A stretch of 31,157 nucleotides of DNA, taken from positions 1 to 31,157 of the forward strand of contig JBBIHW010000001.1 of the NCBI GenBank assembly GCA_037446795.1. The letters run 5' to 3'. This stretch comes from Acidobacteriota bacterium. GTDB lineage: Bacteria; Acidobacteriota; Polarisedimenticolia; Polarisedimenticolales; JBBIHW01. Made by a program: the position numbers and the translations under genes. The notes beneath the pieces were generated by a model, which did no database searches, was not told where the DNA came from, and saw only the letters and a program-made list of their open reading frames with translations. Positions 11,635 through 30,469 of this stretch are shown here, piece by piece (position 1 is the stretch's first letter; each line of letters starts with the position of its first letter).

Positions 11635-14600
11635 CTATGCTCCCGCTCGGACCCTCCCCGGTCGCTCCACGGAACCCCTCGTCGGCGGGCTCGCGACCGA
11701 GAGCTTCGCCAGGTGCTGCAGGATCGCCGCGCGCCGCTCCACGATCTTCCGGGTCGCCTCGACGAACCTCCGCGCGGCCTCGGGGCCCGCCTCCCCGACG
11801 GCGCGGAAGCGTCCCTCGCGGCGGAGGAACCCCTCGACAGGGACCCTGGGAGCGGGGGAGTCCAGCACGAGCGGCGGCTGGCCCGCCTCCGCGCGGCGGG
11901 GGTCGAACCGGTAGAGCGGCCAGATCCCCGAATCCACGGCGAGCTTCTGCTGCTCGGTCCCGTGCACGAGCTCGTAGCCGTGGGCGACGCACGGGCAGTA
12001 GGCGATCACCAGCGAGGGACCTCGGTAGGTCTCGGCCTCGACGAGCGCCCGCACCGTCTGGGCGTCCTTGGCGCCGAGGGCCACCTGCGCCACGTACACG
12101 TGGCCGTAGCTCATCGCCATGAGGCCGAGGTCCTTCTTCGGCGTCCGCTTCCCCGTCACCGCGAACTTGGCCGCGGCGCCGAGCGGGGTGGCCTTCGACT
12201 GCTGGCCGCCCGTGTTCGAGTAGACCTCGGTGTCCAGCACGAGGACATTGACGTCCCGGCCGGTCGAGAGCACGTGGTCGAGCCCGCCGAAGCCGATGTC
12301 GTAGGCCCATCCGTCCCCGCCGACGATCCAGACCGTCTTCCGCACGAGCCAGTCGGCGATTCGCTCGAGCCTCCTCGCCTCGGGAAGCTCGGCCCCCCGG
12401 AGGCGGCGCTTCAGTTCGGCGACGCGCTCCCGCTGCGCGGCGACCTCCGCCTCGCTGCGGGCCTCGGTCTCGAGGATCGCCCGGGCGAGCGCCTCGCCCA
12501 CGTGCGGGGACAGCCGGACCAGAAGCTGCGCGGCCTGCCCGGCCAGGCTGTCCACGGCCAGCCGGAACCCGAAGCCGAACTCGGCGTTGTCCTCGAACAG
12601 GGAGTTGCTCCACGCCGGCCCTCGGCCCTCCCGGTTCGCGCACCAGGGGGTCGTCGGCAGGTTTCCGCCGAAGATCGAGGAGCAGCCCGTGGCGTTGGCG
12701 ACGAGCAGGCGGTCGCCGAACAGCTGGGTCAGGAGCTTGAGGTAGGGTGTTTCGCCGCAGCCGGAGCACGCCCCCGAGAACTCGAACAGCGGCTCGAGCC
12801 ACTGCGATCCCTTGACGTCGAGCCGCACCGTCTCCCGCGGAGGGTCGGGGAGGCCGAGGAAGAAGTCCCAGTTCGGCCGCTCCCCCTCGCGCAGCGCCGC
12901 GGCCGGCTCCATGCGGAGCGCCTTGCGCGACGGTTCCTGCTTGTCGTGGGCCGGGCAGACGGCCACGCACAGGGCGCAGCCGGTGCAATCGTCCGGAGCG
13001 ACCTGCAGCGCGTAGGACCACCCGCGGAAGTCGCGGCCCTCGTACGCGGTCGTCCTGAACCCCTCCGGGGCGCCCTCGAGAGCCTCCGGCGGGACGACCT
13101 TCGCGCGGATCGCCGCGTGAGGGCACAGCAGCGCGCACTTGTTGCACTGGATGCAGAGGGCCGGCTCCCAGACCGGCAGCTCGCGGGCGATCCCCCGCTT
13201 CTCCCAGCGCGAGGTGCCGACGGGCCAGGTGCCGTCCACGGGGAACGCGCTGACGGGAAGGTCGTCCCCGTGACCGGCGAGCATCGCGGCCGTGACGCGC
13301 TGGACGAAGTCCGGCGCCTCGGCGGGAACGACCGGCAACCGGCTTCGCGGGGAGGTCGCCCGGTCCGGGATGCGGACCTCGTGCAGGTGGGACAGGGCCG
13401 CGTCCACCGCAGCCAGGTTGCGGCGCACGGTGTCCTCTCCGGATCTCGCGTAGCTCCGGCGCACCGATTCTCGGATGCGGGCGAGCGCCTCCTCCCGCGG
13501 AAGCAGCCCGGCGAGCTCGAAGAAGCAGGTCTGCATGATCGTGTTGATGCGCCCGCCGAGGCCCACCTCTCGGGCGAGGCGGTGGGCGTCCACCACGAAC
13601 ACCGCAACCGCTTGGCGACGATCTCCTCCTGGACCTCCCGAGGCAGGTGGTCCCAGACCTTCTCCGGAGGATAGGGAGCATTGAGAAGAACCTTGCCCCC
13701 GGGCTCGGCCCGCTCCAGCACCCGGTGGCGCTCGAGGAGGGGGAACTGGTGGCAGGCGACAAGCTCCGCCCGCCGGAGGAGGTAGGGGGAGCGGATCGGC
13801 TCGCGGCCGAAGCGGAGGTGGGACACGGTCACCGCGCCCGACTTCTTCGAGTCGTAGACGAAGTAGCCCTGGACGTTGAGGTCCGTCGCCTCGCCGACGA
13901 TCTTCACCGAGCTCTTGTTGGCTCCTACGGTTCCGTCCGAGCCCAGCCCGAAGAACAGGGCGCGGAAGCGGCCGGCGGGCTCGATGTCGAAGTCGGGGTC
14001 GAACGGCACCGAGCTGCCGGTGACGTCGTCCACGATCCCGACCGTGAAGTGGTTTCGCGGCGCGTCCCGGCGAAGCTCCTCCAGGACGCCGCGGACCATG
14101 GCGGGGGTGAACTCCTTCGAGGACAGGCCGTAGCGGCCGCCCACGACGGTCGGGGGCCGCTCGCCGGCCAGGACGCCCGAGCCCCAGGCTTCCCGCACGG
14201 CGGCCACCACATCGAGGTAGAGCGGCTCGCCGACGGCGCCCGGCTCCTTCGTCCGGTCGAGCACGGCGAGGGCCCGGGTGGATCGGGGGAGGGCGGCCGC
14301 GAAGTCCGGAACGGAGAAGGGCCGGAACAGGCGGACCTGCACGACCCCGACCTTCTCCCCCCGGGCGGCGAGGTGCTCCACGGTCTCCCGGGCGGTCTCG
14401 GCCGCCGAGCCCATGACGACGACGACCCGCTCCGCCTCGGGGTGGCCGGCGTAGTCGAAGAGGCGATAGGCGCGGCCCGTGCGCGCGGCGAGCTCCTCCA
14501 TCGTCGCCCGAACGATTCCGGGGCAGGCGAGGGTGTACGGGTTCGCGGCCTCCCGCGCCTGGAAGAACGTGTCGGGGTTCTGCGCCGTCCCCCGCAGCAC

Positions 14601-15242
14601 CGGCCGGTCGGGTGTCAGCGCCCTTTCGCGGTGGGCGTGGACGAGCTCTTCGGGGACGAGGGCGCGCAGATCCTCGTCGGAGAGCTCCTCGATCCTCGTG
14701 ATCTCGTGCGACGTTCGGAACCCGTCGAAGAAGTGCAGGAACGGGATCCGGGAGCGGAGCGACGCGAGGTGCGCCACGAGCGCGAGGTCGTGCGCCTCCT
14801 GGACCGACGCCGAGGCGAGCATGGCGACGCCGGTCTGCCGGCAGGCCATGACGTCCGAGTGGTCCCCGAAGATGGAGAGCGCGTGCGTCGCCACGGTGCG
14901 CGCGGCGACGTGCAGGGTGAGCGGCGTCAGCTCTCCTGCGATCTTGAAGAGATCGGGGATCATGAGCAGCAGTCCCTGCGAGGCGGTGAAGGTCGTGGCG
15001 AGCGATCCCGCCTGGATCGCTCCGTGAAGGGCCCCGGCGGCACCCGCCTCGGACTGCATCTGGACGACCTCGGGAACGGCTCCCCACACGTTGCGCATCC
15101 CGCGAGCCGACCACTCGTCCGCCGCCTCGCCCATGGCCGACGCGGGCGTGATGGGATAGACCGCGATGACCTCGCTCAGCCGATAGGCCACCGAGGCGGC
15201 CGCTTCGTTTCCATCCACGGTGATCCGACGGGGTGCCGGCAC
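11635..15242 (-). pseudogene. nifJ: Pyruvate:ferredoxin (flavodoxin) oxidoreductase, NifJ-type homodimeric, with one apparent frameshift at about 13601-13603 (true lesion or sequencing error)
   Basis: GTG 15242 after GGGAGGGAG. The N-terminal frame has DGNEA, YPITPA, MQSEAGAAG and GLGSDGTVGANK; the C-terminal frame has RINTIMQTCFF, CIQCNKC..CP, DCTGC..C..CP, FSGACSGCGE, NATGCSSI and GGDGWAYDIG. Adding one base yields about 1202 aa. Confidence 0.92.
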
Positions 15243-15287
15243 GAGACTCCCTCCCGCAGCGCTCGGGCTGCCCTCGGGACGACCGGG

Positions 15288-15303
15288 TGCACGATCGAAG
15301 CCA
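15288..15303 (-). promoter_or_regulatory. Candidate sigma54 -24/-12 promoter for PFOR
   Basis: TGGCTTCGATCGTGCA has exact GG-N10-GC spacing and lies about 46 nt before the start codon. It deviates from TGGCACG at three positions. Confidence 0.4.
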
Positions 15304-15595
15304 GGCCGGACGCGCCTTCCGCCGCACCGGTCGGCCGCGCGCGGCGCAAACATTGCGATTCGCCCGGGGCGGACGCGCTTTTTTCGGGCCCGCAGGCCGC
15401 GGGGCGCCGGCCCGGGATCCGGGCCGCGGACCCGGCGGGCAGCGGAGCCCATCCTGCTCCCTTTCGGACGGCGGCCGTCTGTTTGCGGAGCGCGCGCGAG
15501 CCCGGCAGGGCGCGCCGGCCCTCTTCCGGTATCGGACAGGTCCGAGGCGATCGGCGCCGCTTCGCGGCCTCTCCGGGCAGACAGCTTCTCGCTCA

Positions 15596-15611
15596 GGGCA
15601 CGCTTGTTGCG
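15596..15611 (+). promoter_or_regulatory. Sigma54 -24/-12 promoter for the cytochrome c-HybA-HybB operon
   Basis: GGGCACGCTTGTTGCG matches GGCACG-N4-TTGC. It is followed by GGAGGAGG and GTG 15643. Confidence 0.65.
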
Positions 15612-15642
15612 ACCTCGCCAGCTCGGGAGGAGGACTGCGACG

Positions 15643-16002
15643 GTGCGCCGGCCCGCTCTCGTGGCTCCGCTCGTGGCGGGGATCGCGGCGGCCGCTCTGG
15701 CGGCGGGCGCGGCGGGGGAACCTGCCAGGTGGCGCCTGCCGGCCGCGATCGTCTTCGAGGGGAATCCGGAGTCGCCCGGACGGGTGGTGTTCCGCCACGA
15801 CAGCCACGTCTCGCTCCAGCCGAAGGCCTGCCTCGGCTGCCATCCGGCGCTGTTCCCGATCCTCAGGCCCGTTCGCACGACGAGCCACGCGCGCATGGAG
15901 GCGGGCGATTCCTGCGGCGCCTGTCACGACGGAGGAAAGGCGTTCTCGGCGCGAGACGGAGGGGCGTGCGAGGTCTGTCACGTCCAGGGGGAACAAGGGT
16001 GA
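15643..16002 (+). CDS. Triheme c7-type periplasmic cytochrome c
   Basis: Signal peptide followed by FRHDSH, CLGCH, CGACHDG..AF and CEVCH (three CxxCH) plus a Met before heme 2. This pattern resembles c7-type triheme domains. SD GGAGGAGG. Confidence 0.88.
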   Translation: MRRPALVAPLVAGIAAAALAAGAAGEPARWRLPAAIVFEGNPESPGRVVFRHDSHVSLQPKACLGCHPALFPILRPVRTTSHARMEAGDSCGACHDGGKAFSARDGGACEVCHVQGEQG

Positions 16003-16784
16003 GCGCCGGACTCCTGATCGACGCCACCCTCTGCGTCGGATGCGGCGCCTGCGAGGCTGCCTGCAAGGAGGCCAACGGGCTCCCGCTCCCGGTCGAAGAG
16101 CGGACCACGGCCTACACCTGGACCGTCGTGCAGCAACGCGAGGGGCAGTACGTGCGCAGGCTGTGCATGCACTGCCTCGAGCCGACGTGCGTGTCGGTCT
16201 GTCCCGTGGGCGCGCTTTCGAAGACGGAGGCCGGGCCCGTCGTCTACGACCCGAAGCGGTGCATCGGGTGCCGCTACTGCATCATGGCCTGCCCGTTCGG
16301 CGTCCCGAAGTACCAGTGGGACCGGCCCGTGCCGGTGGTGGGGAAGTGCGTGCTGTGCGCGGGCCGCCTCGAGCAGGGGCTCGCGCCTGCGTGCGCCGCC
16401 GTCTGCCCGACCGGCGCCTCGCTCTTCGGCCGGCGGGACGAGCTGCTGCAGGAGGCGCGAGCCCGGATCGCCTCGGAGCCCGGCCGTTACGTGAACCGCG
16501 TCTACGGCGCCGAGGAGGCGGGCGGGACCTCCGTCCTCCTGCTCTCGAGCGTCCCGTTCGAGCGGCTCGGGTTTCCCGCCGGCCTGCCGAAAGAGCCGCT
16601 TCCGCTCCGGACGTGGCAGGTCCTGTCCAAGATCCCCGACTTCGTGGTTCTCGCCGGCGTGTTTCTCTACGGGCTGTTCTGGATCACCAGGCGCCGGGAG
16701 CAGGTGCGGGCCGCGGAGGGCGAGCCGCGCGAGGCGGACCTGGACGAGCGGCCCGCTCCGGGAGACGGGGAGGCAGCCCCGTGA
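15999..16784 (+). CDS. HybA/FdnH/NrfC-like 4x[4Fe-4S] electron-transfer protein with C-terminal membrane anchor
   Basis: CVGCGACEAAC, CMHCLEPTCVSVCP, CIGCRYCIMACP and KCVLC...PAC...CP, ending in a C-terminal TM helix. GTGA overlap with the cytochrome gene. Confidence 0.92.
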   Translation: MSAGLLIDATLCVGCGACEAACKEANGLPLPVEERTTAYTWTVVQQREGQYVRRLCMHCLEPTCVSVCPVGALSKTEAGPVVYDPKRCIGCRYCIMACPFGVPKYQWDRPVPVVGKCVLCAGRLEQGLAPACAAVCPTGASLFGRRDELLQEARARIASEPGRYVNRVYGAEEAGGTSVLLLSSVPFERLGFPAGLPKEPLPLRTWQVLSKIPDFVVLAGVFLYGLFWITRRREQVRAAEGEPREADLDERPAPGDGEAAP

Positions 16785-17974
16785 ACGCCGCGCGGCCCGC
16801 GTCCGACCCGCCGGGCGCCGTCAGGTTCTGGCGCGCCGTGTTCGCCCTGGTGGTCGCGGCCTTCGCCGTGGCCACGGTTCTGCGGTTCGGGCTCGGGCTC
16901 GGCGCGGTCACGAACCTGTCGGACCGCTTCCCGTGGGGCCTCTGGATCGGCTTCGACGTCCTGTGCGGCGTCGGTCTCGCGGCCGGTGCGTTCACCCTGA
17001 CCGCCGTCGTGCACCTGCTGAACCTCCGGCGCTTCGAGCCGATCCTCCGCTCCACGGTGCTCACGGCGCTGCTCGGTTATCTGCTCGTGATCGTGGCCCT
17101 GCTGTTCGACCTGGGGCAGCCGTGGCGCATCCGGCACCCGCTCGTGTTCCGCAATCCGCACTCGGTCATGTTCGAGGTGGCCTGGTGCGTGATGCTCTAC
17201 ACGACCGTGCTCGCCTTCGAGTTCGCGCCGGTCGTCTTCGAGAGACTGAGCCTCCACACCCTCGGGAGCGTCCTCCGCGCCGTCTCGACGCCGCTGGTGA
17301 TCGCGGGGGTCATCCTCTCGACGCTGCACCAGTCCTCGTTGGGCTCGCTCTACCTGATCGTCCCGGAGAAGCTCCACCCGCTCTGGTACACGCCCCTGCT
17401 GCCCCTGTTCTTCTTCATGTCCGCGGTCGGAGCGGGGCTCGGGATGGTCGTTCTGGAGTCGTGGCTGTCGGGGCGCGCCTTCGGCCGCGAGCTCGAAATG
17501 GATCTGCTCGAGCCCCTCGCGCGGGCGATGGCGGTCGTGCTCGGGGTCTACGGCCTGCTCCGCCTCATCGTTCTCCGGCGCGCCGGGGCGCTGGCGCGTT
17601 TCGCCGATCCCGGCTACGAGGAGGCGATGTTCGCCGTGGAGCTCGCCCTGGGCGTCCTGCTGCCCGTCGGGCTGCTCGCCCTCCCGCGCGTGCGCCGGAG
17701 CGGCCGCGGGCTCGTGGTCGCGGCGTTCCTGGCGGTGCTCGGGCTCGTCGCCAACCGCCTGAACGTGAGCGTGACCGGGATGGAGGCAGCTGCCGGGGCC
17801 CGATACCTTCCCTCGGTGATGGAGGTCCTGGTCTCTCTCGGGCTCGTCGCGCTCGGCTTTGCCCTGTTCGCGTTCGCCGCGCGGTGGCTGCCCGTCTTCC
17901 CCGAGCGCGGCGCGACGACGCCCGGGAGGCGGGCCGAGACGGCCCGCCCGGTCGCCGAGCCCGTGGAGGTCTAG
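16781..17974 (+). CDS. NrfD/PsrC-family quinone-interacting membrane protein, HybB-like
   Basis: TNLSDRFPWGLWIGFDVLCGVGLAAG, DLGQPWR, SVMFEVAWC and LSTLHQSSLG; polytopic. GTGA overlap. Confidence 0.9.
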   Translation: MNAARPASDPPGAVRFWRAVFALVVAAFAVATVLRFGLGLGAVTNLSDRFPWGLWIGFDVLCGVGLAAGAFTLTAVVHLLNLRRFEPILRSTVLTALLGYLLVIVALLFDLGQPWRIRHPLVFRNPHSVMFEVAWCVMLYTTVLAFEFAPVVFERLSLHTLGSVLRAVSTPLVIAGVILSTLHQSSLGSLYLIVPEKLHPLWYTPLLPLFFFMSAVGAGLGMVVLESWLSGRAFGRELEMDLLEPLARAMAVVLGVYGLLRLIVLRRAGALARFADPGYEEAMFAVELALGVLLPVGLLALPRVRRSGRGLVVAAFLAVLGLVANRLNVSVTGMEAAAGARYLPSVMEVLVSLGLVALGFALFAFAARWLPVFPERGATTPGRRAETARPVAEPVEV

Positions 17975-17976
17975 TG

Positions 17977-19887
17977 GTGCGTTCGCGGCTCGGGACCCAG
18001 GTCGTCCTCGGCGTGGCGCTGACCAGCGTTCTCACCCTGGGCGCGATGATCGCGTTCGTGCTCCGAGCTCACCGCGCAGCTCTGACCGGGGAGCTCCACC
18101 GCGTGGCGGACCAGCTCGGCGCGACGATCAAGACCGCGACGCACGACGACATGCTGGAAAACCGCCGCGACCGCCTCCGCCGCCAGATCGAGGCCCTCGG
18201 CCGCCAGGAAGGCATCCAGAGCGTGCGCGTGTACAACAAGGAAGGTCGCATCGTGTTCGCCTCCGACCCTGCCGAGACGGGCCGGGCCGTGGACAAGCGC
18301 GCCGAGGCCTGCTACGCGTGCCACGCCGAGGACCGCCCGCTGGAGCGCCTGCCGACCCCGGCGCGATTCCGGATCTTCCGCGGTCCCGACGGCGAGCGCC
18401 TGCTGGGGATCATCCATCCGGTCCAGAACGAGCCGAGCTGCTGGACGGCCTCCTGCCACGCCCACGACCCCGAGGACACCGTCCTCGGGGTCCTGGACGT
18501 CACGGTGTCGCTCGCTCAGGTGGACCGCAACATCGCCTCGAGCCAGCGGCGCATGGCGGCGCTGGCCGCGGTCGCGATCGCCGCCAGCGCCTTCATCCTG
18601 TGGTGGCTGATCCGCCGGCTCGTGCTGAAGCCCGTCCGGGCCCTCGCCGCCGGCACGCGACGCGTGGCCGAGGGCGACCTGACCGCCACCGTCCCCGTGG
18701 CCGCGCGCAACGAGCTCGGCGAGCTGGCCCGGTCCTTCAACGAGATGACCGTCCGGCTCGCCGAGGCGCAGCGCCAGCTCACCCAGGCGGACAAGCTGGC
18801 GTCGGTGGGGCGACTCGCGGCGGGGATGGCCCACGAGATCAACAACCCTCTGACGGGCGTGCTCACCTACGCCTCCTTCCTGCTCAAGCGATGCGAGTCG
18901 GACCCCGCCCTCCGGGAGGATCTCGAGGTCGTCGTCCGCGAGACGAAGCGCTGTCGGGACATTGTGAAAGGACTCCTCGACTTCGCCCGCCCGGCCCCGC
19001 CCCGCCGCGTCCCGGCCGATCTCAACGACGTCGCCCGGCGGGCGGCGCGGATCCTGATGAACCAGCTCGCCCTCAACCGCGTCGGCCTCGCCCTCGACCT
19101 CGCCGAGGATCTGCCCGCGGTTCCGGCGGACGCCAACCAGATCCAGCAGGTGCTCGTCAATCTGCTGGTGAACGCGGCGGACGCGATCGGAGAGGAGGGG
19201 GGCACGATCCGGGTGTCCACGCGGCTCGTGCGGCTGCCGCCCCGGGGGAATCGGCCGATCCGCTCGGCGCGGTGCCCGAAGGGATGCGACCTCCTGGACG
19301 TCGCGTGGAGGATCGGGGGGCTTCCGTCCATCCGCGTCCTGCGGAGGTGCGGAGATCAGGAGGCGGCCTACCACCTCGACCCGACCTACGGGCGCTTCAA
19401 CCACAGGGCCGGAGCGCCGTGCGAGGAGGGCGTCCTCGCCGGCTTCGAGTGCCCGCGCTGCCGGACCGCGCTCGTGGTTCCGGACGTCCGCTGCGACAGC
19501 TGCGGCGCTCCGGCCTTCGCCGTCTCGACCGTGGAGGGAGGCCGGGTCCTGTGGTGCACGCGCAACGGTTGTCACTGGTCTCGGTGGGACTGGGCGGAGG
19601 CAGCGGGCGAGGAGCCGGGGGTCGAGATCGCCGTCGAGGACACCGGGCGCGGGATTGCGGCCTCGGACCTGCCCCACGTTTTCGAGCCCTTCTTCACCAC
19701 GAAGGGGCCGCGCGGGACGGGCCTCGGCCTGTCCATCTCCTGGGGGATCGTCAACGCCCACGGCGGGACCATCGAGGTGTGGAGCGAGGAAGGCAGAGGA
19801 AGCCGGTTCACCGTGAGGCTGCCCGTCGGCGCGGTCGCCCCGGCGTCGCCTGCCGCCGCGGCCGACGCCGCGGCCGCCCGGGCGTGA
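17977..19887 (+). CDS. Sensor histidine kinase with extracytoplasmic heme-c motifs, HAMP, HisKA, and HATPase_c carrying a Cys-rich insertion
   Basis: TM-CYACH...CWTASCH-TM-HAMP, H-box AHEINNPL, N-box QVLVNLLVNA, an insert with 10 Cys, then DTGRG/FFTTK/GTGLGL. Start GTG 17977 (or 17974) after GGAGG. Confidence 0.9.
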   Translation: MRSRLGTQVVLGVALTSVLTLGAMIAFVLRAHRAALTGELHRVADQLGATIKTATHDDMLENRRDRLRRQIEALGRQEGIQSVRVYNKEGRIVFASDPAETGRAVDKRAEACYACHAEDRPLERLPTPARFRIFRGPDGERLLGIIHPVQNEPSCWTASCHAHDPEDTVLGVLDVTVSLAQVDRNIASSQRRMAALAAVAIAASAFILWWLIRRLVLKPVRALAAGTRRVAEGDLTATVPVAARNELGELARSFNEMTVRLAEAQRQLTQADKLASVGRLAAGMAHEINNPLTGVLTYASFLLKRCESDPALREDLEVVVRETKRCRDIVKGLLDFARPAPPRRVPADLNDVARRAARILMNQLALNRVGLALDLAEDLPAVPADANQIQQVLVNLLVNAADAIGEEGGTIRVSTRLVRLPPRGNRPIRSARCPKGCDLLDVAWRIGGLPSIRVLRRCGDQEAAYHLDPTYGRFNHRAGAPCEEGVLAGFECPRCRTALVVPDVRCDSCGAPAFAVSTVEGGRVLWCTRNGCHWSRWDWAEAAGEEPGVEIAVEDTGRGIAASDLPHVFEPFFTTKGPRGTGLGLSISWGIVNAHGGTIEVWSEEGRGSRFTVRLPVGAVAPASPAAAADAAAARA

Positions 19888-19895
19888 GGCGCGCC

Positions 19896-20297
19896 ATGCG
19901 ACCGCGCTGGGACGTTCTGGTCGTGGACGACGAGGAGGTCGTCAGGAGCGGCGTGTCGCGGGTGCTCTCCGAAGCGGGCTACGAGGTCGCGACCGCGGCC
20001 GACGGCACCGCCGCCCTCGCGCACCCGGCGGCCTCCTCGTGTCGGCTCGTCCTGCTGGACCTGATGCTCCCCGACAGGTCCGGCATCGGCCTGCTCGAGG
20101 CTCTGCGCGAGCTGCGGCCCGACCGGCCGGTGGTCGTGATCACCGGCTACGCCACCTCCGAGAGCCTCGCGCGAGCTCTCGAGGCGGGCGCCGCCAGCGT
20201 GCTGGCGAAGCCGTTCGACGCCGCGGAGCTCCTCGATGCGGTCCGAACCGCCCTCGCCGAGACCGCTCCGGCGGGCGCCAGGAGGGATCCACCATGA
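19896..20297 (+). CDS. Single-domain response regulator (receiver only)
   Basis: VVDDE, LLDLMLP, ITGY and KPF; 133 aa with no output domain. Confidence 0.88.
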   Translation: MRPRWDVLVVDDEEVVRSGVSRVLSEAGYEVATAADGTAALAHPAASSCRLVLLDLMLPDRSGIGLLEALRELRPDRPVVVITGYATSESLARALEAGAASVLAKPFDAAELLDAVRTALAETAPAGARRDPP

Positions 20298-21403
20298 CCG
20301 CGCTGCTCGTCCTGCTCCTGTTCGCCGGCTTCGCCGTCGTGGACATCCTGGTGCGGGTCGGGGCGCGCCGCCTCGCGCAGGCGCGCGCGCGCCGGGAGCG
20401 GGAGGCCATCCTCGCCACCTCCGTCCGCCTGGACTTCACCCAGGAGGCGCCCACCCTCAAGCGGGTGGAGGTGCCGGACGCGCTCGCGCGCATCCTGGCC
20501 GTGGACGACGAGCCGATCGTCCTCGACAGCTTCCGGAAGATCCTGGTTCTCGCCGGCTTCAGCGTGGATACGGTGGAGAGCGGCCCGGAAGCCCTCGGCC
20601 TCGTCCAGCGGCGCGACTACGACTTCGTGTTCACGGACCTCAAGATGCCCGGCATGGACGGGGTCGAGGTGGTCAAGGCGGTGCACCACCTGCGGCCCGA
20701 CGTGGACATCGCCGTCATCACCGGCTACGGGACCATCGAGTCGGCGGTGGAAACCATGCAGCACGGAGCCGTGGACTACGTCCAGAAGCCGTTCACGGAG
20801 GAGGAGCTGGTGGCCTTCGCCCGCAGACTGCTCCTCCGGCGGCAGGCGCGCCTCGAGCGCGAGCGACGTCCCTCGGTGCGGCTGGTGGCCCCGGCCCTCG
20901 CCGACGCGGCGCCCGGCGGCGAGTACCGGGTCCCGGGCGGCGTGTTCCTCTCCGAGGGGCACACCTGGGCTCGGATCGAGCCCGACGGCAACGTCCGGGT
21001 GGGCCTCGACGACTTCGCGCGCCGGGCGCTGGGGCCCATCGAGCGCGTCGAGGCGGCAGCCCGCGGGACCGCCGTGCGGCGCGGGGAGACCCTCTTCACG
21101 GTTCGGAGCGGGAACCGGGCGGCGCGCCTTCCGGCTCCGTTGAGCGGGCGCGTGGTTCGCGTTCACGAGGCGCTCGCCCGCGACGGCTCTCCGGTGAGCG
21201 AGAGCCCGTACGAGCGCGGCTGGGTGGTCGTGCTCGAGCCCGCGAACCTCGCCCGGGAACTCCCCGGGCTCAGGATCGGCGGCCCCGTGGTCGCCTGGTA
21301 CCAGGAAGAGATCGCACGCCTCCGGCAGATGGGCGAGGTGCCGGAGGACTGGTCGGCGTTCGAGAGCGAGTTCCTGCGCGCCCGCACGGCGACTCCGATC
21401 TGA
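20294..21403 (+). CDS. Membrane-anchored response regulator fused to a glycine-cleavage H-protein-like domain
   Basis: N-terminal hydrophobic helix; receiver AVDDE...TDLKMP...ITGY...KPF; then GHTWAR...VGLDDFA..ALG...APLSGRV...SPYERGW (GcvH fold). ATGA overlap. Confidence 0.87.
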   Translation: MTALLVLLLFAGFAVVDILVRVGARRLAQARARREREAILATSVRLDFTQEAPTLKRVEVPDALARILAVDDEPIVLDSFRKILVLAGFSVDTVESGPEALGLVQRRDYDFVFTDLKMPGMDGVEVVKAVHHLRPDVDIAVITGYGTIESAVETMQHGAVDYVQKPFTEEELVAFARRLLLRRQARLERERRPSVRLVAPALADAAPGGEYRVPGGVFLSEGHTWARIEPDGNVRVGLDDFARRALGPIERVEAAARGTAVRRGETLFTVRSGNRAARLPAPLSGRVVRVHEALARDGSPVSESPYERGWVVVLEPANLARELPGLRIGGPVVAWYQEEIARLRQMGEVPEDWSAFESEFLRARTATPI

Positions 21404-21487
21404 GGCGCGGGACGCGTCCGTGGGACCGGCGGCAGGCGGGCGACTTGCGGGTGGCATCGCGAAGCGCCCCGAAACGGGCGGAATCCC

Positions 21488-21781
21488 GTGTTGATCGCCG
21501 GAGCGGGGAGGCCTACGCTGCCACGCGGGATGAAGAGGAGCGGCGTCCGCTCGCCTCCGCGCGCAGGCGGCGCTCGCGGGGCCTTCGCTCCCGCTTTCGG
21601 GCCGCGCGACCGCATGGCGGCTTCCGCCGGGCACGCCGGGACGAAGCTGCGCCTCGACGATCCCGCAGGCCTCGTGCTCCGACACGAGCTCGATCCGGCG
21701 CGATCCGGCGCCGGGGACGACCGTCCGCCGTACCGGATCGTCCTGCGGTGTCACCTGGCCGGGGAGAGGGAGCTGCGTTAG
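21488..21781 (+). CDS. Possible small hypothetical protein
   Basis: Fills part of a 400-nt gap, and the 3' half (from ATG 21614) has coding-like GC3. There is no clear SD and no recognisable motif. Confidence 0.2.
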   Translation: MLIAGAGRPTLPRGMKRSGVRSPPRAGGARGAFAPAFGPRDRMAASAGHAGTKLRLDDPAGLVLRHELDPARSGAGDDRPPYRIVLRCHLAGERELR

Positions 21782-21809
21782 GGGCGGCGCGCCGCGCGCG
21801 GAGGGACAG

Positions 21810-22034
21810 ATGAGGGAGCCCCGTCGCGCGGGCGACGGCGGCCCGGGGAGGGCGAGGGAGGCCGCGGGCCTCCGTCGGGCGGCCGGCGGAGCGCTCCTGG
21901 ACCTCCGGCAGACGGGCTGCTGCGGCGAAGCCCAGGCGGACGGCGTCCCCTGTCCTTCCGTCGGCTCCGACTGCGAAGCCTGCGCGCAGGCGGGGAGCGT
22001 TCGGGTCCGCTTTCGGGACCGCCGCCACGCGTAG
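21810..22034 (+). CDS. Small Cys-rich hypothetical protein (CC-x9-C-x6-C-x2-C)
   Basis: GGAGGG SD 4 nt before the ATG. Five Cys are clustered in GCCGEAQADGVPCPSVGSDCEAC. Confidence 0.55.
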   Translation: MREPRRAGDGGPGRAREAAGLRRAAGGALLDLRQTGCCGEAQADGVPCPSVGSDCEACAQAGSVRVRFRDRRHA

Positions 22035-22062
22035 GATCCTCTCGCGGGAGCAGGGGGCCGCG

Positions 22063-22536
22063 ATGGCCGACAGCGAGATCGAATCGGGCGCCCTCGCGAG
22101 GGAGTTCGAGCGCGCCCTCGAGGAGCACCGGGAGTGCATGCGGCGGGTCGCCGAACTCGAGTCGTGCCTCGGCGAGCGGGCCGATTCCGAGCTCCGATCC
22201 CTCGGCGAGCTGCGCGGCTGCCTCGCCGCCGTCTCGGAAACGTTTCGCGCCCACTTCGCCTCGGAACAGCAAGGCCCGCTCTTCCGCGAGTTCCCCGCCA
22301 CGTTTCCGCAGTTCTCCTTCCGGCTCGGAAAACTCGCGACCGAGCACGCGACGCTGCTCGCCGAGGCGGCCGAGCTCGAGGCTCGAGTCGAGCAGCTGCG
22401 CGAGGCCCACGCCCGCGAGATGCGCTCCATCGAGGCCCGCGTGCGCCTGCTCGTCGCGAGGCTGCGGCGCCACGAGGCGGAGGAGGACGAGATCCTCCTC
22501 AGCGCCTACTGGGACGACGCCGGCCTCGGAGACTGA
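22063..22536 (+). CDS. Hemerythrin/HHE cation-binding domain protein
   Basis: Helical protein with EH...HFASE...EH...HEAEE (H, HxxxE, H, HxxxE pattern). Confidence 0.78.
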
Positions 22537-22585
22537 TCTGCCGGCCCGGGCAGCGCCCGGCCTTCCGCCCGGCGTCGGCCCCATT

Positions 22586-22622
22586 CGAGACCGACGGCGT
22601 CCGATGGAGACGCCCGGTCTCG
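22586..22622. repeat. Strong inverted repeat/hairpin, possibly a terminator or operator
   Basis: CGAGACCG-AC-GGCGTC-loop(7)-GACGCC-CGGTCTCG: 14 bp with a 2-nt bulge. It lies between the hemerythrin stop and the sigma54 motif. Confidence 0.5.
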
Positions 22623-22637
22623 GGCACACTTTGTGCT
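22622..22637 (+). promoter_or_regulatory. Sigma54 -24/-12 promoter for the kor-hdr-flx operon
   Basis: GGGCACACTTTGTGCT shows GGCAC...TGC with GG-N10-GC spacing, about 55 nt before GTG 22692. Confidence 0.55.
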
Positions 22638-22691
22638 GCGCGGGAAGCCCGGCGCCGCGCGTCCGGCGGCGCCTCGGAGCAGGGAGGAACG

Positions 22692-23003
22692 GTGCTCGGG
22701 ACGCTGGCGCGAGAGGCGGGCCGCGAGCGGCGTCCGGTCGTCCGGAGGCCGCCGCCCGTCCGCGGATCCGTCCACATCCGACCGGACCGCTGCAAGGGCT
22801 GCGGCTTCTGCGTCGAGTTCTGCCCGAACGACGTGCTCGTGCTCTCGAGCGAGTTCAACGCGAAGGGGTTCCACTACCCCGTCGTCGTCGCGGATGCGTG
22901 CGTGGACTGCAAGCTGTGCACGCGCCTCTGCCCCGAGTACGCGATCTTCTCCACGCCGCTGCCCGAGGGCGCTCGCCCGGCGGGAGCGGGGAGGAACCCG
23001 TGA
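22692..23003 (+). CDS. korD: 2-oxoacid:ferredoxin oxidoreductase delta subunit (2x[4Fe-4S] ferredoxin-like)
   Basis: [12 protein letters not shown]...FNAKGFHYP...[19 protein letters not shown] after GGGAGG; GTGA overlap with the alpha subunit. Confidence 0.85.
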
Positions 23004-24190
23004 GCGACGGCGGCCTTCTGACCGGAGAACACTTCATGCTGGGCGACGACGCGCTCGCCGAAGGGGCGATCGCCGCGGGGTGCAGGTTCTTCGCTGGCTA
23101 CCCGATCACACCCTCCACCGAGACGGCGGAGCGGATGGCGAGGAGGATGCCGCAGGTCGGAGGGGTCTACCTCCAGATGGAAGACGAGATCGCCTCCATC
23201 GCCGCGATCCTGGGGGCCGCCTGGGCCGGCGCGAAGGTCATGACGGCGACCTCGGGCCCGGGCTTCTCCCTCATGCTGGAAAACCTCGGTCTCGGCATCA
23301 TCACCGAGACCCCCGCGGTCATCTGCAACGTGCAGCGGGCCGCCCCCTCCACGGGGCTGCCGACCCTCGTGGGTCAGGGCGACATGCAGCAGGCCCGCTG
23401 GGGTTCCCACGGCCACTACGAGATCATCGCGCTCGCGCCCTGGACCGCGCAGGAGTGCTTCGACCTGACGGTGCGCGCCTTCAACCTGGCGGAACGGTTC
23501 CGTCTGCCGGTGCTCGTGATGGCGGACGCCGAGGTCGGCCACCTGACCGAGAAGGTCGTCATCCCGCCGCCGGACATGCTCGAGGTCTGGGACCGCCCGG
23601 CGCCGGCCGAGCCCCCCGACCGTTTCGACCCGAGCGCGACGAGGGACCTCGTCCCGCCGATGCCGAAGGCGGGCGACGGCTACCACGTGTTCGTGGAGAG
23701 CCTCACCCACGACGAGCGCGGCTATCCGGTCATGACCGCCGAGGCGCAGGGCAAGCTCGTGCGCCGGCTCGTCGCCAAGATCCAGGAGAACCGGGCGTGG
23801 ATCGAGGACGTGGACGAGCGCGGGGTCGCCGAGGCCGAGGTGATCGTCGTCTCCTACGGCATCTCCGCGCGCGTCGCGACGCGGGCGATCGAGCGGGCGC
23901 GGCGGCGCGGCCTCGCCGCGGGGCTCCTGCGGCTGCGCACCGTGTGGCCCTTCCCGGACCAGAGGATCCGGGCGCTGTCGGCCCGGGTGCGCGGCTTCGT
24001 CGTCCCCGAGATCAACCTGGGGCAGATCGTCCGGGAGGTGGAGCGGTGCGCCGTCGACCGCTGCCGCGTCGCGCTGGTCCCTCACGCGGGAGGGGCGCTG
24101 CACGATCCCGAGGAGATCGCCGACGCCATCGCCGCGGTCGCGGCGGGCCGCGCCCCCTGTCGCGGGGAGCTCGCCGGGCGAGGAGCCTGA
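23000..24190 (+). CDS. korA: 2-oxoacid:ferredoxin oxidoreductase alpha subunit (four-subunit Kor/Oor type)
   Basis: [35 protein letters not shown] and [10 protein letters not shown]. Substrate specificity is not determinable. Confidence 0.9.
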
Positions 24191-24191
24191 G

Positions 24192-26195
24192 GTGGCGCGG
24201 ATCGGCGTGTTCGTCTGCCACTGCGGGGAGAACATCGCCCGCACGGTGGACGTGGCGCGCGTGGCCGGCGAGGCGCGGAAGATGCCCGGGGTCGCCTTCG
24301 CCACCGACTACCTTTACATGTGCTCGGCGCCGGGCCAGAAGCTGCTCGCCGAAGCGATCGCCGAGCACGGCCTGACCGGTGTCGTCGTCTCCGCCTGTTC
24401 GCCGCAGCTCCACGAGCCGACCTTCCGCGCGGCGGCGGCGCAGGCCGGCCTCAACCCGTTCCTCTGCGAGATGGCCAACATCCGGGAGCAGTGCTCCTGG
24501 GTGCATCCGTCCCGGGAGGCGGGGACCGCCAAGGCGTGCCGGCTGGTCGCCGCCGCCGTCGAGAAGGTCCGCCACGCGCGGCCGCTCGAGCCGGCGGGGG
24601 TGCCCGTCACCCGCAGGGCCCTCGTGATCGGGGGCGGGGTGGCCGGCATCCGGGCGGCGCTGGACATCGCCTCGGCAGGTCACGAGGTCGTGCTCGTGGA
24701 AAAGCAGCCCTCGATCGGCGGCAACATGGCGCGCCTGTCCGAGACGTTCCCGACGCTCGACTGCTCGCAGTGCATCCTCACGCCGCTCATGGTAGAGGCG
24801 GCGCGCCACCCGAACATCGAGTTGCTGACCTCCGCGGAGGTGGAGGAGGTCGGCGGCTACGTGGGCTCCTTCCGCGTGCGCATCCGCAGGAAGCCCGCCT
24901 ACGTGAAGCCCGACCTCTGCACAGCATGCGGGGACTGCGCGTCGGCCTGTCCCGTGTCGGTGCCCAACGAGTTCGACCGCGGCCTGTCCTGGCGCAAGGC
25001 GATCTACATCCCGTTCCCTCAGGCCGTGCCCGCCACCTACACCCTCGACGCGAACAGCTGCCTCAACGCCAAGCAGGAATCGGCGACCGGCTACCGCGTG
25101 CTCGCCTGCGAGAGGTGCGCGGAGGCATGCGACCGGCAGGCCATTGACTACGACGCCCGGCCGGAGATCCTCGAGCGGGAGGTGGGCGCCATCGTCGCGG
25201 CCACCGGCTACGAGCTGCTGCCCCGCGGCTCGCTCGAGGAGTACGGCTACGGTCGCTACGCGGACGTCGTGGACGGCCTGGAGTTCGAGCGGCTGCTGTC
25301 GGCCTCGGGACCGACCGAGGGGGAACTCCGCAGGCCCTCGGACGGGCGCCCGGTGCGCGACGTGGTGTTCGTGCAGTGCGCGGGCTCGCGCGACCCGCGC
25401 CGCGGCGTGCCGTACTGCTCGCGCATCTGCTGCATGGTGACCGCGAAGCATGCGCTGCTGTTCAAGCACAAGGTCGCCGACGGGCGCGCCACGGTCTTCT
25501 ACATGGACATCCGCGCCGGAGGAAAGGGGTACGAGGAATTCGTCCGGCGCGTCATGGAGGAGGAGCGCGTCCTGTACGTCCGCGGGCGTGCGAGCCGCGT
25601 GGTACCGCACGACGGCGAGCTGGTGGTGTTCGGCGCGGACACGCTGTCCGGGCAGCCCGTGCAGGTGCGGGCCGATCTCGTGGTCCTGGCCACCGCGATG
25701 ACGCCCGCGCCGGGCGACCTCGCGGCCCGCCTCCGGATCCCCACGGACCCGCACGGCTTCTTCCAGGAGGCCCACCCGAAGCTCCGGCCTGTGGAGACCC
25801 TCGCCGCGGGGGTCTACGTCACGGGCGCCGCGCAGGCCCCCAAGGACATCCCGGACACGGTGGCGCAGGCCTCGGCCGCCGCCTCGAAGGCGCTCGAGCT
25901 GCTGTCCAGGACCGAGCTGCGGCGCGAGCCGACGACCGCCCGCGTCCGCGAGGCGCGCTGCATGGCCTGCTTCGAGTGCGCCCGGGTCTGCCCGTACAAG
26001 GCCGTCGCCGTCGAGGAGATCCGCGACCGGGAAGGGAAGGTCGTCAGGCAGGTGGCCGCCGTGCGGGTCGCGATGTGCGAGGGGTGCGGTGCGTGCGTGG
26101 GTGCGTGCAGGACCGGGGCGATGGACCTGGACGGGTTCGCGGACGAGCAGCTGTTCGCCCAGATCGAGGCGCTCGCGCGGAGGGAGGCGGCGTGA
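24192..26195 (+). CDS. hdrA: Heterodisulfide reductase subunit A (FAD, Fe-S; flavin-based electron bifurcation)
   Basis: RIGVFVCHCG, CSP..HE..FR, NIREQCSWVH, GGGVAG, TFPTLDCSQC, inserted ferredoxin CTACGDC..CP, CSRICCM and C-terminal ferredoxin motifs. Confidence 0.95.
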   Translation: MARIGVFVCHCGENIARTVDVARVAGEARKMPGVAFATDYLYMCSAPGQKLLAEAIAEHGLTGVVVSACSPQLHEPTFRAAAAQAGLNPFLCEMANIREQCSWVHPSREAGTAKACRLVAAAVEKVRHARPLEPAGVPVTRRALVIGGGVAGIRAALDIASAGHEVVLVEKQPSIGGNMARLSETFPTLDCSQCILTPLMVEAARHPNIELLTSAEVEEVGGYVGSFRVRIRRKPAYVKPDLCTACGDCASACPVSVPNEFDRGLSWRKAIYIPFPQAVPATYTLDANSCLNAKQESATGYRVLACERCAEACDRQAIDYDARPEILEREVGAIVAATGYELLPRGSLEEYGYGRYADVVDGLEFERLLSASGPTEGELRRPSDGRPVRDVVFVQCAGSRDPRRGVPYCSRICCMVTAKHALLFKHKVADGRATVFYMDIRAGGKGYEEFVRRVMEEERVLYVRGRASRVVPHDGELVVFGADTLSGQPVQVRADLVVLATAMTPAPGDLAARLRIPTDPHGFFQEAHPKLRPVETLAAGVYVTGAAQAPKDIPDTVAQASAAASKALELLSRTELRREPTTARVREARCMACFECARVCPYKAVAVEEIRDREGKVVRQVAAVRVAMCEGCGACVGACRTGAMDLDGFADEQLFAQIEALARREAA

Positions 26196-27613
26196 ACGGG
26201 ACCCTGCTCGAGATCGGGCCGCCCGCGGCGCGGGAGGAGCGGTCGGGGTTCGAGCCCGTGGTCGTGGCCATCGTGTGCAACTGGTGCACGTACGCGGGAG
26301 CCGACATGGCGGGGACGACGCGCAGGGCGTACCCGCCGAACGTGCGGCTGCTGCGCGTGCCGTGCACGGGACGCGTCAGCCCTCTGCAGGTCCTCAAGGC
26401 TTTCGAGCAGGGCGCGGACGGCGTGCTCGTGTCCGGCTGCCATCCCGGCGACTGCCACTACGTCCACGGGAACCTCGTCGCACGCAGGCGCCTCGCGATC
26501 CTCCGGGCGCTGCTCGACTTCGTCGGCCTCGACGCGCGGCGCTTCCACGTCTCGTGGGTGTCCGCCTCCGAGGGGGTCCGCTGGGCGCGCGTGGTCGAGA
26601 CGGTGACCCGTGCCGTGCGGGAGGCGGGGCCCCTCGACGCCTGGAGTCCCCGGGACGGCGAAGAGCCGGTCCGGCTCCCCGAGCCGCCCCCCGCCCCGTC
26701 TCCCCCCGCGTCGCCGGAGGAGCAGGAGGCGGTCGGCCGCAACCTGCGATCGCTCGCCGCGAGCCTCCTCGGGGAGGGCCGAGTGACCGTCTTCCTCGGC
26801 TACGGGGAGGCGACCCTTCCCGGCCGCGCCGTCCCGCTGCTCGCCACGGACCTCGCGGAAGCCAGCGCGCTGGTCTGGAACGACCGCTGCCACTCGAACC
26901 TCGCCGTGTACCTCGCCGGGCCGAACCGCGTCCCGGGGAAGGTCGCGGTCGTCCTCAAGGCCTGCGACGCGCGCGCGGTCATCGGGCTGCAGCAGGAAGG
27001 GCAGCTCCGGCGCGAGGACTTGGTCCTGGTCGGCGTGCGCTGCCCGGGAGTCCGCGAGGAGGACGGCCGGCTCGCGCTCAAGTGCCATGCCTGCGACGGG
27101 GAGGTCGCCGCGGGCTGCGACTTCACCGTGTCGGCCGATGGGGTGGAGACGGGCGCTGCGAGGTCGGCCGCTCCGCGCGCGGTGGCCCCGGACCCGCGCG
27201 ACGCCGCGATCGCCTTCCTCGAAGGGCTCCCTCCCGCGCGGCGCTGGGCGTTCTGGCGAGAGCAGTTCGACCGGTGCCTGCGGTGCTACGCGTGCCGTGC
27301 GGTCTGCCCGCTCTGCTACTGCGGCACCTGCATCAGCGAGCACCACCGGCCGCAGTGGATCCCCGCGTCCATCGGCCCGCGCGGGAACGCCTCGTGGAAC
27401 GCGATCCGGGCGTATCACCTCGCGGGCCGCTGCGCGGGCTGCGACGAGTGCACGCGGGCGTGCCCCGCGCGGCTGCGGCTCGACCTCCTCAACCGCCGCC
27501 TCGCCCTCGAGGTGGAGCGGCGGTTCGGCTACCGCGCGGGGGAGGACCCGAGCGCGGCGCCGCCCCTCGCCGCCTTCCGTCCGGAGGATCCGCAGGAGTT
27601 CGTCCACGCATGA
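26192..27613 (+). CDS. flxCD: MvhD/FlxD [2Fe-2S] domain fused to an FlxC-like 4Fe-4S domain (FlxCD fusion)
   Basis: CNWCTYAGAD, VPCTGRV and GCHPGDCHY (MvhD), then a Pro-rich linker, then CLRCYACRAVCPLCYC and HLAGRCAGCDECTRACP. Confidence 0.85.
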   Translation: MNGTLLEIGPPAAREERSGFEPVVVAIVCNWCTYAGADMAGTTRRAYPPNVRLLRVPCTGRVSPLQVLKAFEQGADGVLVSGCHPGDCHYVHGNLVARRRLAILRALLDFVGLDARRFHVSWVSASEGVRWARVVETVTRAVREAGPLDAWSPRDGEEPVRLPEPPPAPSPPASPEEQEAVGRNLRSLAASLLGEGRVTVFLGYGEATLPGRAVPLLATDLAEASALVWNDRCHSNLAVYLAGPNRVPGKVAVVLKACDARAVIGLQQEGQLRREDLVLVGVRCPGVREEDGRLALKCHACDGEVAAGCDFTVSADGVETGAARSAAPRAVAPDPRDAAIAFLEGLPPARRWAFWREQFDRCLRCYACRAVCPLCYCGTCISEHHRPQWIPASIGPRGNASWNAIRAYHLAGRCAGCDECTRACPARLRLDLLNRRLALEVERRFGYRAGEDPSAAPPLAAFRPEDPQEFVHA

Positions 27614-30465: not shown

Positions 30466-30469
30466 CCCG

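Follow-up and report, generated by a model that had tools for sequence, protein, structure and literature searches.

The 31,157-nucleotide stretch analyzed here (the window; positions 1 to 31,157 of contig JBBIHW010000001.1, assembly GCA_037446795.1, from an Acidobacteriota bacterium) encodes a membrane-anchored response regulator whose output domain has the fold of the glycine cleavage H-protein (GcvH) and has lost the lysine that carries lipoic acid. We refer to this domain as GcvH* and to the protein, which comprises a transmembrane (TM) helix, a receiver (REC) and GcvH*, as TM-REC-GcvH*. As the defining lipoyl lysine was looked for and is absent, the protein is, on its sequence, a response regulator with a GcvH-fold output and neither a GcvH nor an LbpA, the lipoate-binding protein of sulfur-oxidizing Hdr-like (sHdr) systems. 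Its gene ends an operon that also encodes a sensor histidine kinase with c-type heme motifs, a lone receiver (REC1) and a membrane module resembling HybAB and HmcBC, formed by an iron-sulfur (Fe-S) protein and an NrfD-family subunit, and the linkage to this module is conserved across many phyla. Our preferred reading, drawn from comparative genomics and held with somewhat better than even confidence, is that GcvH* belongs to the Fe-S/NrfD module as an accessory or docking part on the cytoplasmic side, placed here under direct phospho-control. The signal would then probably act on the respiratory module directly and not on gene expression.

Results

Architecture of the response regulator

The open reading frame at 20294-21403 is free of internal stops. 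Its start codon is the ATG at 20294: a Shine-Dalgarno sequence (AGGAGGG) stands before it, it forms an ATGA overlap with the stop codon (TGA) of the REC1 gene upstream, and the N-termini in orthologue alignments all begin MTALL... or MVAL.... A longer reading frame from a GTG at 20039 was rejected as the gene on these three grounds. The gene and its parts are:

20294-21403, forward strand: TM-REC-GcvH* response regulator (P0001, 369 aa), from translation, Pfam, orthologue alignment, AlphaFold2 (AF2) modeling and Foldseek
20297-20359, forward strand: N-terminal TM anchor, residues 2-22, with invariant Asp17 and Arg21, from a multi-phylum alignment of 45 sequences
20492-20815, forward strand: receiver domain, residues 67-174, with the acidic pair D71/D72, phospho-acceptor D115 (20636-20638), T143 and K165, from Pfam and alignment
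20933-21256, forward strand: GcvH-fold domain without the lipoyl Lys (GcvH*), from Pfam, alignments and Foldseek
21257-21400, forward strand: family-specific C-terminal helical extension (LRIGxPVVxWYQEEIxRLR ... DWxxFExxFL), from conserved columns and the AF2 model

The initial annotation, made from the DNA letters, had proposed a TM-REC-GcvH architecture in a two-component set devoid of DNA-binding output, and both proposals are upheld. Residues 2-22 are hydrophobic and lead into an Arg-rich stretch. Pfam assigns Response_reg to residues 67-174 (E = 2.8e-29) and GCV_H to residues 221-321 (E = 1.8e-20), each scoring better than its curated cut-off, and reports nothing else of weight. The AF2 model, built on the 45-sequence alignment (mean predicted local distance difference test score, pLDDT, 89.8), comprises one long helix (residues 2-43), a canonical receiver whose alpha5/linker helix is extended (169-191), a beta-rich domain and, at the C-terminus, two helices (330-346 and 353-361). 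Profile scans with Pfam and NCBIfam detected a DNA-binding domain neither in TM-REC-GcvH* nor in REC1; a typical DNA-binding or enzymatic output domain, which a response regulator need not possess, was not found in TM-REC-GcvH*, where REC and GCV_H were the only domains.

By NCBIfam the receiver is nearest to the NtrC/AtoC/NtrX/FixJ types, and the fold matches from Foldseek are the receivers of DctD, NtrC1 and NtrX, in keeping with an NtrC-like domain that continues into a long alpha5-linker helix. The active-site residues D71, D72, D115, T143 and K165 are invariant across the 45 sequences, which extend down to 46% identity and span many phyla. The same holds for Asp17 and Arg21 of the TM helix and for a set of residues in the GcvH core and C-terminal extension. 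The helix motif recurs in a receiver-less relative (P0139), and the C-terminal extension is common to receiver-less GcvH* proteins. Because the receiver must meet the cytoplasmic kinase core, the topology would be N-out/C-in, with the GcvH-like domain in the cytoplasm.

An H-protein fold without its lipoyl lysine

Foldseek superposed the GcvH* domain of the AF2 model on the E. coli H-protein with a template-modeling score (TM-score) of 0.89-0.93 and a root-mean-square deviation of 1.2-1.9 Å. Over the E. coli, bovine and Thermus H-proteins these values were 0.88-0.93 and 1.2-2.3 Å, with 3a8i, 3ab9 and 1onl among the matches. Together with the Pfam assignment, this substantiates the GcvH fold that had been proposed for the C-terminal domain. 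In phmmer alignments, residues 213-321 match the H-proteins of M. tuberculosis (3hgb) and T. thermophilus (1onl) without gaps, with N274 opposite the lipoyl Lys of their VES(T/V)K motif. The codon of Asn274 is AAC at 21113-21115, as the initial annotation had read it. The canonical gcvH of the same genome, located on another contig and scoring 154.8 bits with Pfam, retains the Lys, and the alignment pairs GTVESVKAVSDIYAPVSG with FTVRSGNRAARLPAPLSG.

Loss of the lysine is family-wide: Lys stands at the canonical lipoyl position in 6 of 200 orthologues and in 7 of 185 domains of the wider GcvH* family. In the orthologues, position 274 is occupied by D (46), A (30), G (26), T (20), S (19), E (18), R (12), Q (8), N (7) and K (6), with other residues in the remainder. 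The Glu three residues before the lipoyl site, conserved in the canonical H-proteins compared, is replaced by Arg or Lys. Within the domain the hairpin varies most, and the core motifs HxW, GxDDFA, APxSG and PYxxGW are retained. GcvH* scores below the NCBIfam equivalog cut-offs (59.9 bits against 115.85 for TIGR00527; 74.6 against 117 for NF002270), and neither gcvT nor gcvP was found in the 31-kb window or in the conserved neighborhood of related loci.

Judged from these alignments, the GcvH* fold cannot carry lipoic acid and is not a cofactor carrier. That it might still be a swinging-arm carrier that bears its modification elsewhere, for instance on a basic residue beside the hairpin tip, is barely credible. 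Lys is indeed common at family positions 271 (85 of 200) and 275, but both positions alternate freely with Arg, His and others, leaving no modifiable Lys conserved, and the exchange of the -3 Glu for a basic residue also speaks against this idea. K271 and K275 were rejected as alternative lipoylation sites on account of this interchange.

Distribution and conserved neighborhood

A word-indexed search returned more than 4,268 relatives at E <= 1e-5, and the 120 best of them, at 63-79% identity, all combine REC with GCV_H. At least 522 genomes, counted as one per species, encode a relative. The hosts include Acidobacteriota (Holophagaceae, with four cultured Geothrix species), Methylomirabilis (Methylomirabilota), Binatia, Eisenbacteria, Gemmatimonadota, KSB1, Ignavibacteria, Elusimicrobia and others.

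To quantify gene linkage, proteins of the window were compared by tblastn with 80 genome loci, 55 of which had enough flank. Genes for the HybA-like and NrfD-like proteins lie beside TM-REC-GcvH* in 54 of these 55 loci, drawn from many phyla, and a histidine kinase gene (HisKA/HATPase) lies directly upstream in all 55. All-against-all clustering of the open reading frames of the loci revealed no further widely conserved neighbor. The architecture search and neighborhood analysis thus link the REC and GCV_H combination to a HybAB-like redox module across genomes. In Holophagaceae a four-gene cassette lies between groES/groEL and scpA, with TM-REC-GcvH* as the sole receiver of the cassette; the cultured Geothrix species (loci L033, L035, L045 and L047) carry this minimal four-gene form.

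Separately, one locus of Candidatus Zhuqueibacter (L065) holds three TM-REC-GcvH* paralogues (52-54% identical to P0001) and further receivers within 20 kb; these paralogues adjoin a pentaheme cytochrome and a HybA/NrfD pair that bears a twin-arginine translocation (Tat) signal.

GcvH* proteins without a receiver

With the GcvH* domain alone as query, we recovered receiver-less proteins in which both the lysine-less hairpin and the C-terminal extension recur. An exhaustive search of cluster representatives yielded 4,576 proteins at E <= 1e-3, of which 1,491 reached E <= 1e-10. The commonest architecture is TM-GcvH* of about 220-250 aa; others are REC-GcvH* and tandem GcvH*. A class of about 560 aa, also adjoining Fer4_11 and NrfD genes, begins with a signal peptide and a PBP-like periplasmic domain, followed by a TM helix and GcvH*. 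It had been considered as a Rosetta-stone fusion of GcvH* with NrfD and was rejected as such from the composition of its N-terminal part. The metagenomic representative P0156 (1391 aa) joins three tandem GcvH* domains to an FAD-linked oxidase, a Fer4 dicluster and two CCG domains (HdrD-like), and one of its GcvH* repeats gives a weak match to RnfC_N.

In all five usable contexts, receiver-less GcvH* genes (P0139, P0144, P0147, P0170 and P0201) lie directly beside Fer4_11 and NrfD genes, and four of the five share the order GcvH*(TM) - Fe-S - NrfD - GcvH*(second copy). These sister cassettes were located in L081, L082, L085 and two metagenome contigs. In the three of these four contexts where the genes that follow are annotated, they encode a kinase, a sigma-54 regulator (REC-AAA+-helix-turn-helix, HTH) and a Peptidase_M54 protein. 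L081 has two GcvH* genes with Fer4_11 and NrfD and no kinase nearby.

The sister cassettes share with the window type a homologous GcvH*, the Fe-S/NrfD pair and the heme-motif kinase. P0139 is 45% identical to TM-REC-GcvH* and has the C-terminal extension and TM motif in common with it; the TM-GcvH* of L082 retains the ...VDYLR... helix motif. The kinase of L082 is 38% identical to that of the window, through the heme-motif sensor domain, and the REC of the L082 sigma-54 regulator is 39% identical to that of TM-REC-GcvH*, linker helix included. The sister cassettes differ in that their GcvH* carries no receiver, the output of the kinase is a REC-AAA+-HTH protein, a second, Cys-rich GcvH* is present and a Peptidase_M54 gene is included. 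From sister to window type, TM-GcvH* corresponds to TM-REC-GcvH* and soluble GcvH* to a soluble REC-GcvH*, and the sigma-54 regulator is absent. The soluble REC-GcvH* has probably been reduced to REC1 in the window and lost in Holophagaceae.

The second GcvH* of the sigma-54 cassettes (L082:9311-10228, L081:5678-6544 and P0147) has an N-terminal four-Cys motif, C-x10-12-C-D-x4-C-x2-C, which could bind a metal or an Fe-S cluster.

The operon and its surroundings

The operon spans 15643-21403 on the forward strand and is translationally coupled, with start/stop overlaps of GTGA, GTGA and ATGA. The genes are ordered as cytochrome c7, HybA/HmcB-like Fe-S protein, NrfD/HybB-like subunit, heme-c kinase, lone receiver and TM-REC-GcvH*. 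The features that precede TM-REC-GcvH* are:

15597-15610, forward strand: sigma-54-like -24/-12 element, GGCAC-N5-TTGC with 1 mismatch, about 33 nt 5' of the first operon gene, by pattern match
15643-16002, forward strand: small exported triheme c7-type cytochrome with three CxxCH motifs (NCBIfam TIGR04257, 2.3e-19, above cut-off)
15999-16784, forward strand: HybA/HmcB-like Fe-S protein with four clusters, a TM helix at the C-terminus and no Tat signal (Pfam Fer4_11, NCBIfam, PDB)
16781-17974, forward strand: NrfD/HybB/HmcC-like quinone-interacting integral membrane subunit, 10 predicted TM helices, both termini cytoplasmic (Pfam NrfD, NCBIfam)
17971-19887, forward strand: sensor histidine kinase with periplasmic CxxCH and Cx4CH, HAMP, HisKA and HATPase (Pfam)
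19896-20297, forward strand: lone receiver REC1 with a complete active site (Pfam Response_reg, 5.3e-27)

The sigma-54-like element is listed because the sister cassettes encode a sigma-54 regulator; with 11 matches in the window, where 18.7 are expected, the pattern shows no enrichment, and the element is weak evidence and a lead only. The cytochrome c7 gene starts with GTG, with GGGAGGAGG before it. The best NCBIfam matches of the Fe-S protein are HmcB (1.3e-71) and HybA (8.5e-67), both from profile position 36-39, and its PDB match is FdnH (5.7e-32); its start overlaps the previous stop as GTGA. The NrfD-like subunit matches HmcC (8.6e-98) and HybB (9.4e-82) and likewise has a GTGA overlap at its start. 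In the kinase, the four heme-motif Cys residues are retained in 93-95% of 77 orthologues.

An additional Cys-rich insert of about 130 aa interrupts the HATPase domain of the kinase (window 19230-19620; CPKGC, CPRC, CDSC and CTRNGCH). It occurs in about 35% of the orthologues, the same subgroup that has cytochrome c7 and REC1. These three features are confined to a long form of the cassette, which the window carries; cytochrome c7 stands 5' of the HybA gene in 16 of 67 loci. At the place of REC1, loci of KSB1, Ignavibacteria and Gemmatimonadota (L068-L080) encode a soluble, lysine-less REC-GcvH* of about 265 aa. REC1 is 43% identical to the receiver of this protein in L070 and 36% identical to that of TM-REC-GcvH*, and is probably the counterpart of the soluble paralogue of the other phyla.

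Downstream, the 660-nt gap at 21403-22063 contains no Rfam match and no terminator-like or sigma-70-like site. One frame of it (orf97, 21488-21781) has coding-like GC content at third codon positions, has no Pfam match and is not conserved in 80 related loci. A second forward-strand operon (22063-31045) follows, with genes for a hemerythrin-like protein, KorD, KorA, HdrA, an MvhD fusion, Flx-like proteins, KorB and KorG; korD/korA are thus parted from korB/korG by the HdrA, MvhD fusion and Flx-like genes, and a GGCAC-N5-TGTGC element lies at 22622-22636. On the reverse strand, a nifJ-type pyruvate:ferredoxin oxidoreductase (PFOR) gene at 11638-15896 is read in two frames that overlap near 13.6-13.8 kb, one with POR_N/PFOR_II/POR and the other with the POR end and EKR/Fer4/TPP_C. 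The gene seems to be frameshifted, whether by an error of sequencing or by a genuine break. A search for transcript evidence returned weak DNA matches in hot-spring metagenomes and no RNA run.

Orientation of the Fe-S/NrfD module

In the NrfD-like family, Lys and Arg number 16.8 on the side of the N-terminus, even loops and C-terminus (cytoplasmic) and 5.9 on the other side. This positive-inside bias is equal in members whose HybA partner bears a twin-arginine signal. Because of the bias, the NrfD-like subunit should adopt the canonical orientation and the Fe-S domain should be periplasmic. A cytoplasmic Fe-S protein, on the same side as GcvH*, is disfavored by the bias and by the Arg-rich C-tail that follows the TM helix of the HybA-like protein.

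The HybA/HmcB-like proteins of the window, of L002-L064 and of L082 begin at the first ferredoxin motif (M-x-x-GLL-x-D-x-x-x-C-x-G-C) and have no twin-arginine signal; distant orthologues (L066, L075, L079 and L080) bear RRxFLK signals.

Discussion

Relation to known proteins and systems

GcvH* shares its fold and about 30-35% identity with GcvH (PF01597, TIGR00527; E. coli 3A7L/3AB9, T. thermophilus 1ONL), of which it keeps the core motifs HxW, G(I/L)xD(F/Y)A, APxSG and PYxxGW. It departs from GcvH in the missing lipoyl Lys, the replaced -3 Glu, the sub-equivalog scores and the lack of gcvT and gcvP nearby, as well as in its fusion to a TM helix and receiver and its extra C-terminal helical extension; the genome moreover has a separate, true gcvH. 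LbpA is soluble, lipoylated on a conserved Lys and encoded with the sHdr genes. GcvH*, unlike LbpA, has no such Lys, is partnered by a HybAB/HmcBC-like module and has no conserved Hdr linkage. The initial annotation had drawn on LbpA and sHdr systems, and as an assignment of membership this analogy fails, since LbpA needs the Lys that GcvH* lacks. The gene set hdrC1B1A-hyp-hdrC2B2 does not accompany TM-REC-GcvH*; the Hdr genes of the window form an HdrA-MvhD-Flx set embedded in kor genes and are not conserved beside the family. LbpA does illustrate that a GcvH-like protein can serve a redox complex and not glycine cleavage (see also bioRxiv 10.64898/2026.10.01.755906).

The two module genes have their best NCBIfam matches in HybA/HybB of E. 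coli hydrogenase-2 and HmcB/HmcC of Desulfovibrio, and in both arrangements an Fe-S protein with four clusters and a TM helix at its C-terminus is paired with a 10-TM NrfD-family subunit. They differ in scoring below the equivalog cut-offs, in the absence of a hydrogenase or large cytochrome, in the Fe-S protein without Tat signal and in being accompanied by GcvH* proteins and a heme-c kinase. In CheY-FliM, RssB, CpdR and DivK, a phosphorylated receiver governs a protein-protein contact and not transcription. TM-REC-GcvH* is unlike these in its unrelated output domain, its membrane anchor and its target, presumably a respiratory membrane module. The RnfC_N domain (PF13375) and the N-terminus of NqrA are cofactor-less lipoyl/biotinyl-like barrels with a structural role at the cytoplasmic face of membrane electron-transport complexes. 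They belong to a different subfamily, without receiver or signaling role, and offer an analogy only.

Proposed mechanism

We infer that GcvH* physically binds the module, that control runs from the regulator to the module and that the kinase motifs hold heme. The kinase would read the redox state of the periplasm or the quinone pool via its c-type heme motifs and phosphorylate D115 of TM-REC-GcvH*. The NtrC-like receiver and its alpha5 linker helix might then change dimer state or orientation, whereupon GcvH* would engage or release either the C-tail of the HybA-like protein or the NrfD-like subunit at its cytoplasmic face, and so tune electron or proton flow without transcription. This would be a form of the post-translational control of electron flow that the initial annotation had suggested. 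In the sister cassettes the kinase would signal to the sigma-54 activator, with GcvH* present as separate receiver-less subunits, one TM-anchored and one soluble and Cys-rich. In the lineage of the window, the phosphoryl signal may have moved from the transcription factor onto the GcvH* parts, the sigma-54 regulator being absent. The more specific scheme, in which GcvH* proteins are regulatory subunits that gate quinone or proton access on the cytoplasmic side of the module and are phosphorylated directly by the kinase, forming a transcription-independent two-component switch built into a respiratory complex that evolved from a sigma-54-controlled ancestor as receivers were moved onto these subunits, is offered tentatively, as possible and less than probable.

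Alternative explanations

The initial annotation had suggested that the H-fold works as an interaction output, docking on either the HybAB-like or the Hdr/Flx/Kor complexes. The former agrees with the conserved linkage in 54 of 55 loci and in all five receiver-less contexts. Docking on Hdr/Flx/Kor, conceived by analogy with LbpA and sHdr, appears very improbable: the Kor-HdrA-MvhD-Flx operon does begin 660 nt downstream in the window, but a Kor set is nearby in 1 of 80 loci and a PFOR in 1 of 80. The gap and the separate sigma-54-like element before that operon, the absence of sHdr-type genes and the missing Lys on which LbpA function depends also count against it. We rejected it as the adjacency seen in the window does not recur.

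Several observations weigh against docking on the Fe-S/NrfD module. Gene neighborhood cannot separate a protein that acts on the module from a module that feeds the sensor. With a periplasmic Fe-S domain and a cytoplasmic GcvH*, contact is limited to the cytoplasmic loops of the NrfD-like subunit and the C-tail of the HybA-like protein, and the conservation of these loops is only moderate, 0.75 for loops 2 and 6 and about 0.5 for loops 4 and 8. The P0156 fusion implies that the partner of GcvH* need not always be NrfD, and one locus (L051) has the kinase and regulators with no module nearby. The last two points also suit an arrangement in which the Fe-S/NrfD module, with the cytochrome, is a sensory antenna that links the kinase hemes to the quinone pool, while the target of GcvH* is encoded elsewhere and may be a different respiratory complex or a metabolic enzyme, or GcvH* is a decoy that engages enzymes recognizing H-proteins. 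A respiratory complex as sensor input has a precedent in the cbb3 oxidase that feeds the PrrBA system, and the heme motifs of the kinase are conserved together with the module. We nevertheless regard this arrangement as rather unlikely: receiver-less GcvH* stands beside Fer4_11 and NrfD even where no kinase is near (L081), no other neighbor is conserved across phyla and the hairpin recognized by H-protein partners is the least conserved part of GcvH*. It is more doubtful still that GcvH* regulates the kinase, as a scaffold, feedback inhibitor or phosphate sink, with TM-REC-GcvH* and REC1 competing and thereby modulating output to a regulator elsewhere. The kinase is the single most constant neighbor (55 of 55), two receivers per kinase are typical of sink or branch designs, and a sigma-54-like element precedes the operon although the window holds no activator. 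Against this stand the two GcvH* genes of L081, with their module and no kinase, and the Holophagaceae cassette, in which TM-REC-GcvH* is the only receiver although a sink needs a main acceptor.

Significance

In databases these proteins are annotated as 'response regulator' or 'CheY-like/glycine cleavage H', and the domain pair is visible there. A full-text literature search found no paper on REC-GcvH proteins, lysine-less GcvH output domains, GcvH with NrfD, or either cassette type. To our knowledge, almost all two-component systems studied end in transcription, chemotaxis, second-messenger turnover or proteolysis. A receiver joined to an H-protein fold without lipoate extends these outputs by an undescribed class, and the GcvH* accessory proteins of HybAB/HmcBC-like modules are proposed here as an undescribed family. 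If GcvH* docks on the Fe-S/NrfD module, it would provide a direct and fast signaling link to a quinone-coupled respiratory complex and assign a function to thousands of proteins now named 'glycine cleavage system H'; the domain is matched by about 4,600 cluster representatives. The cultured Geothrix species, with their minimal four-gene form, make the system testable.

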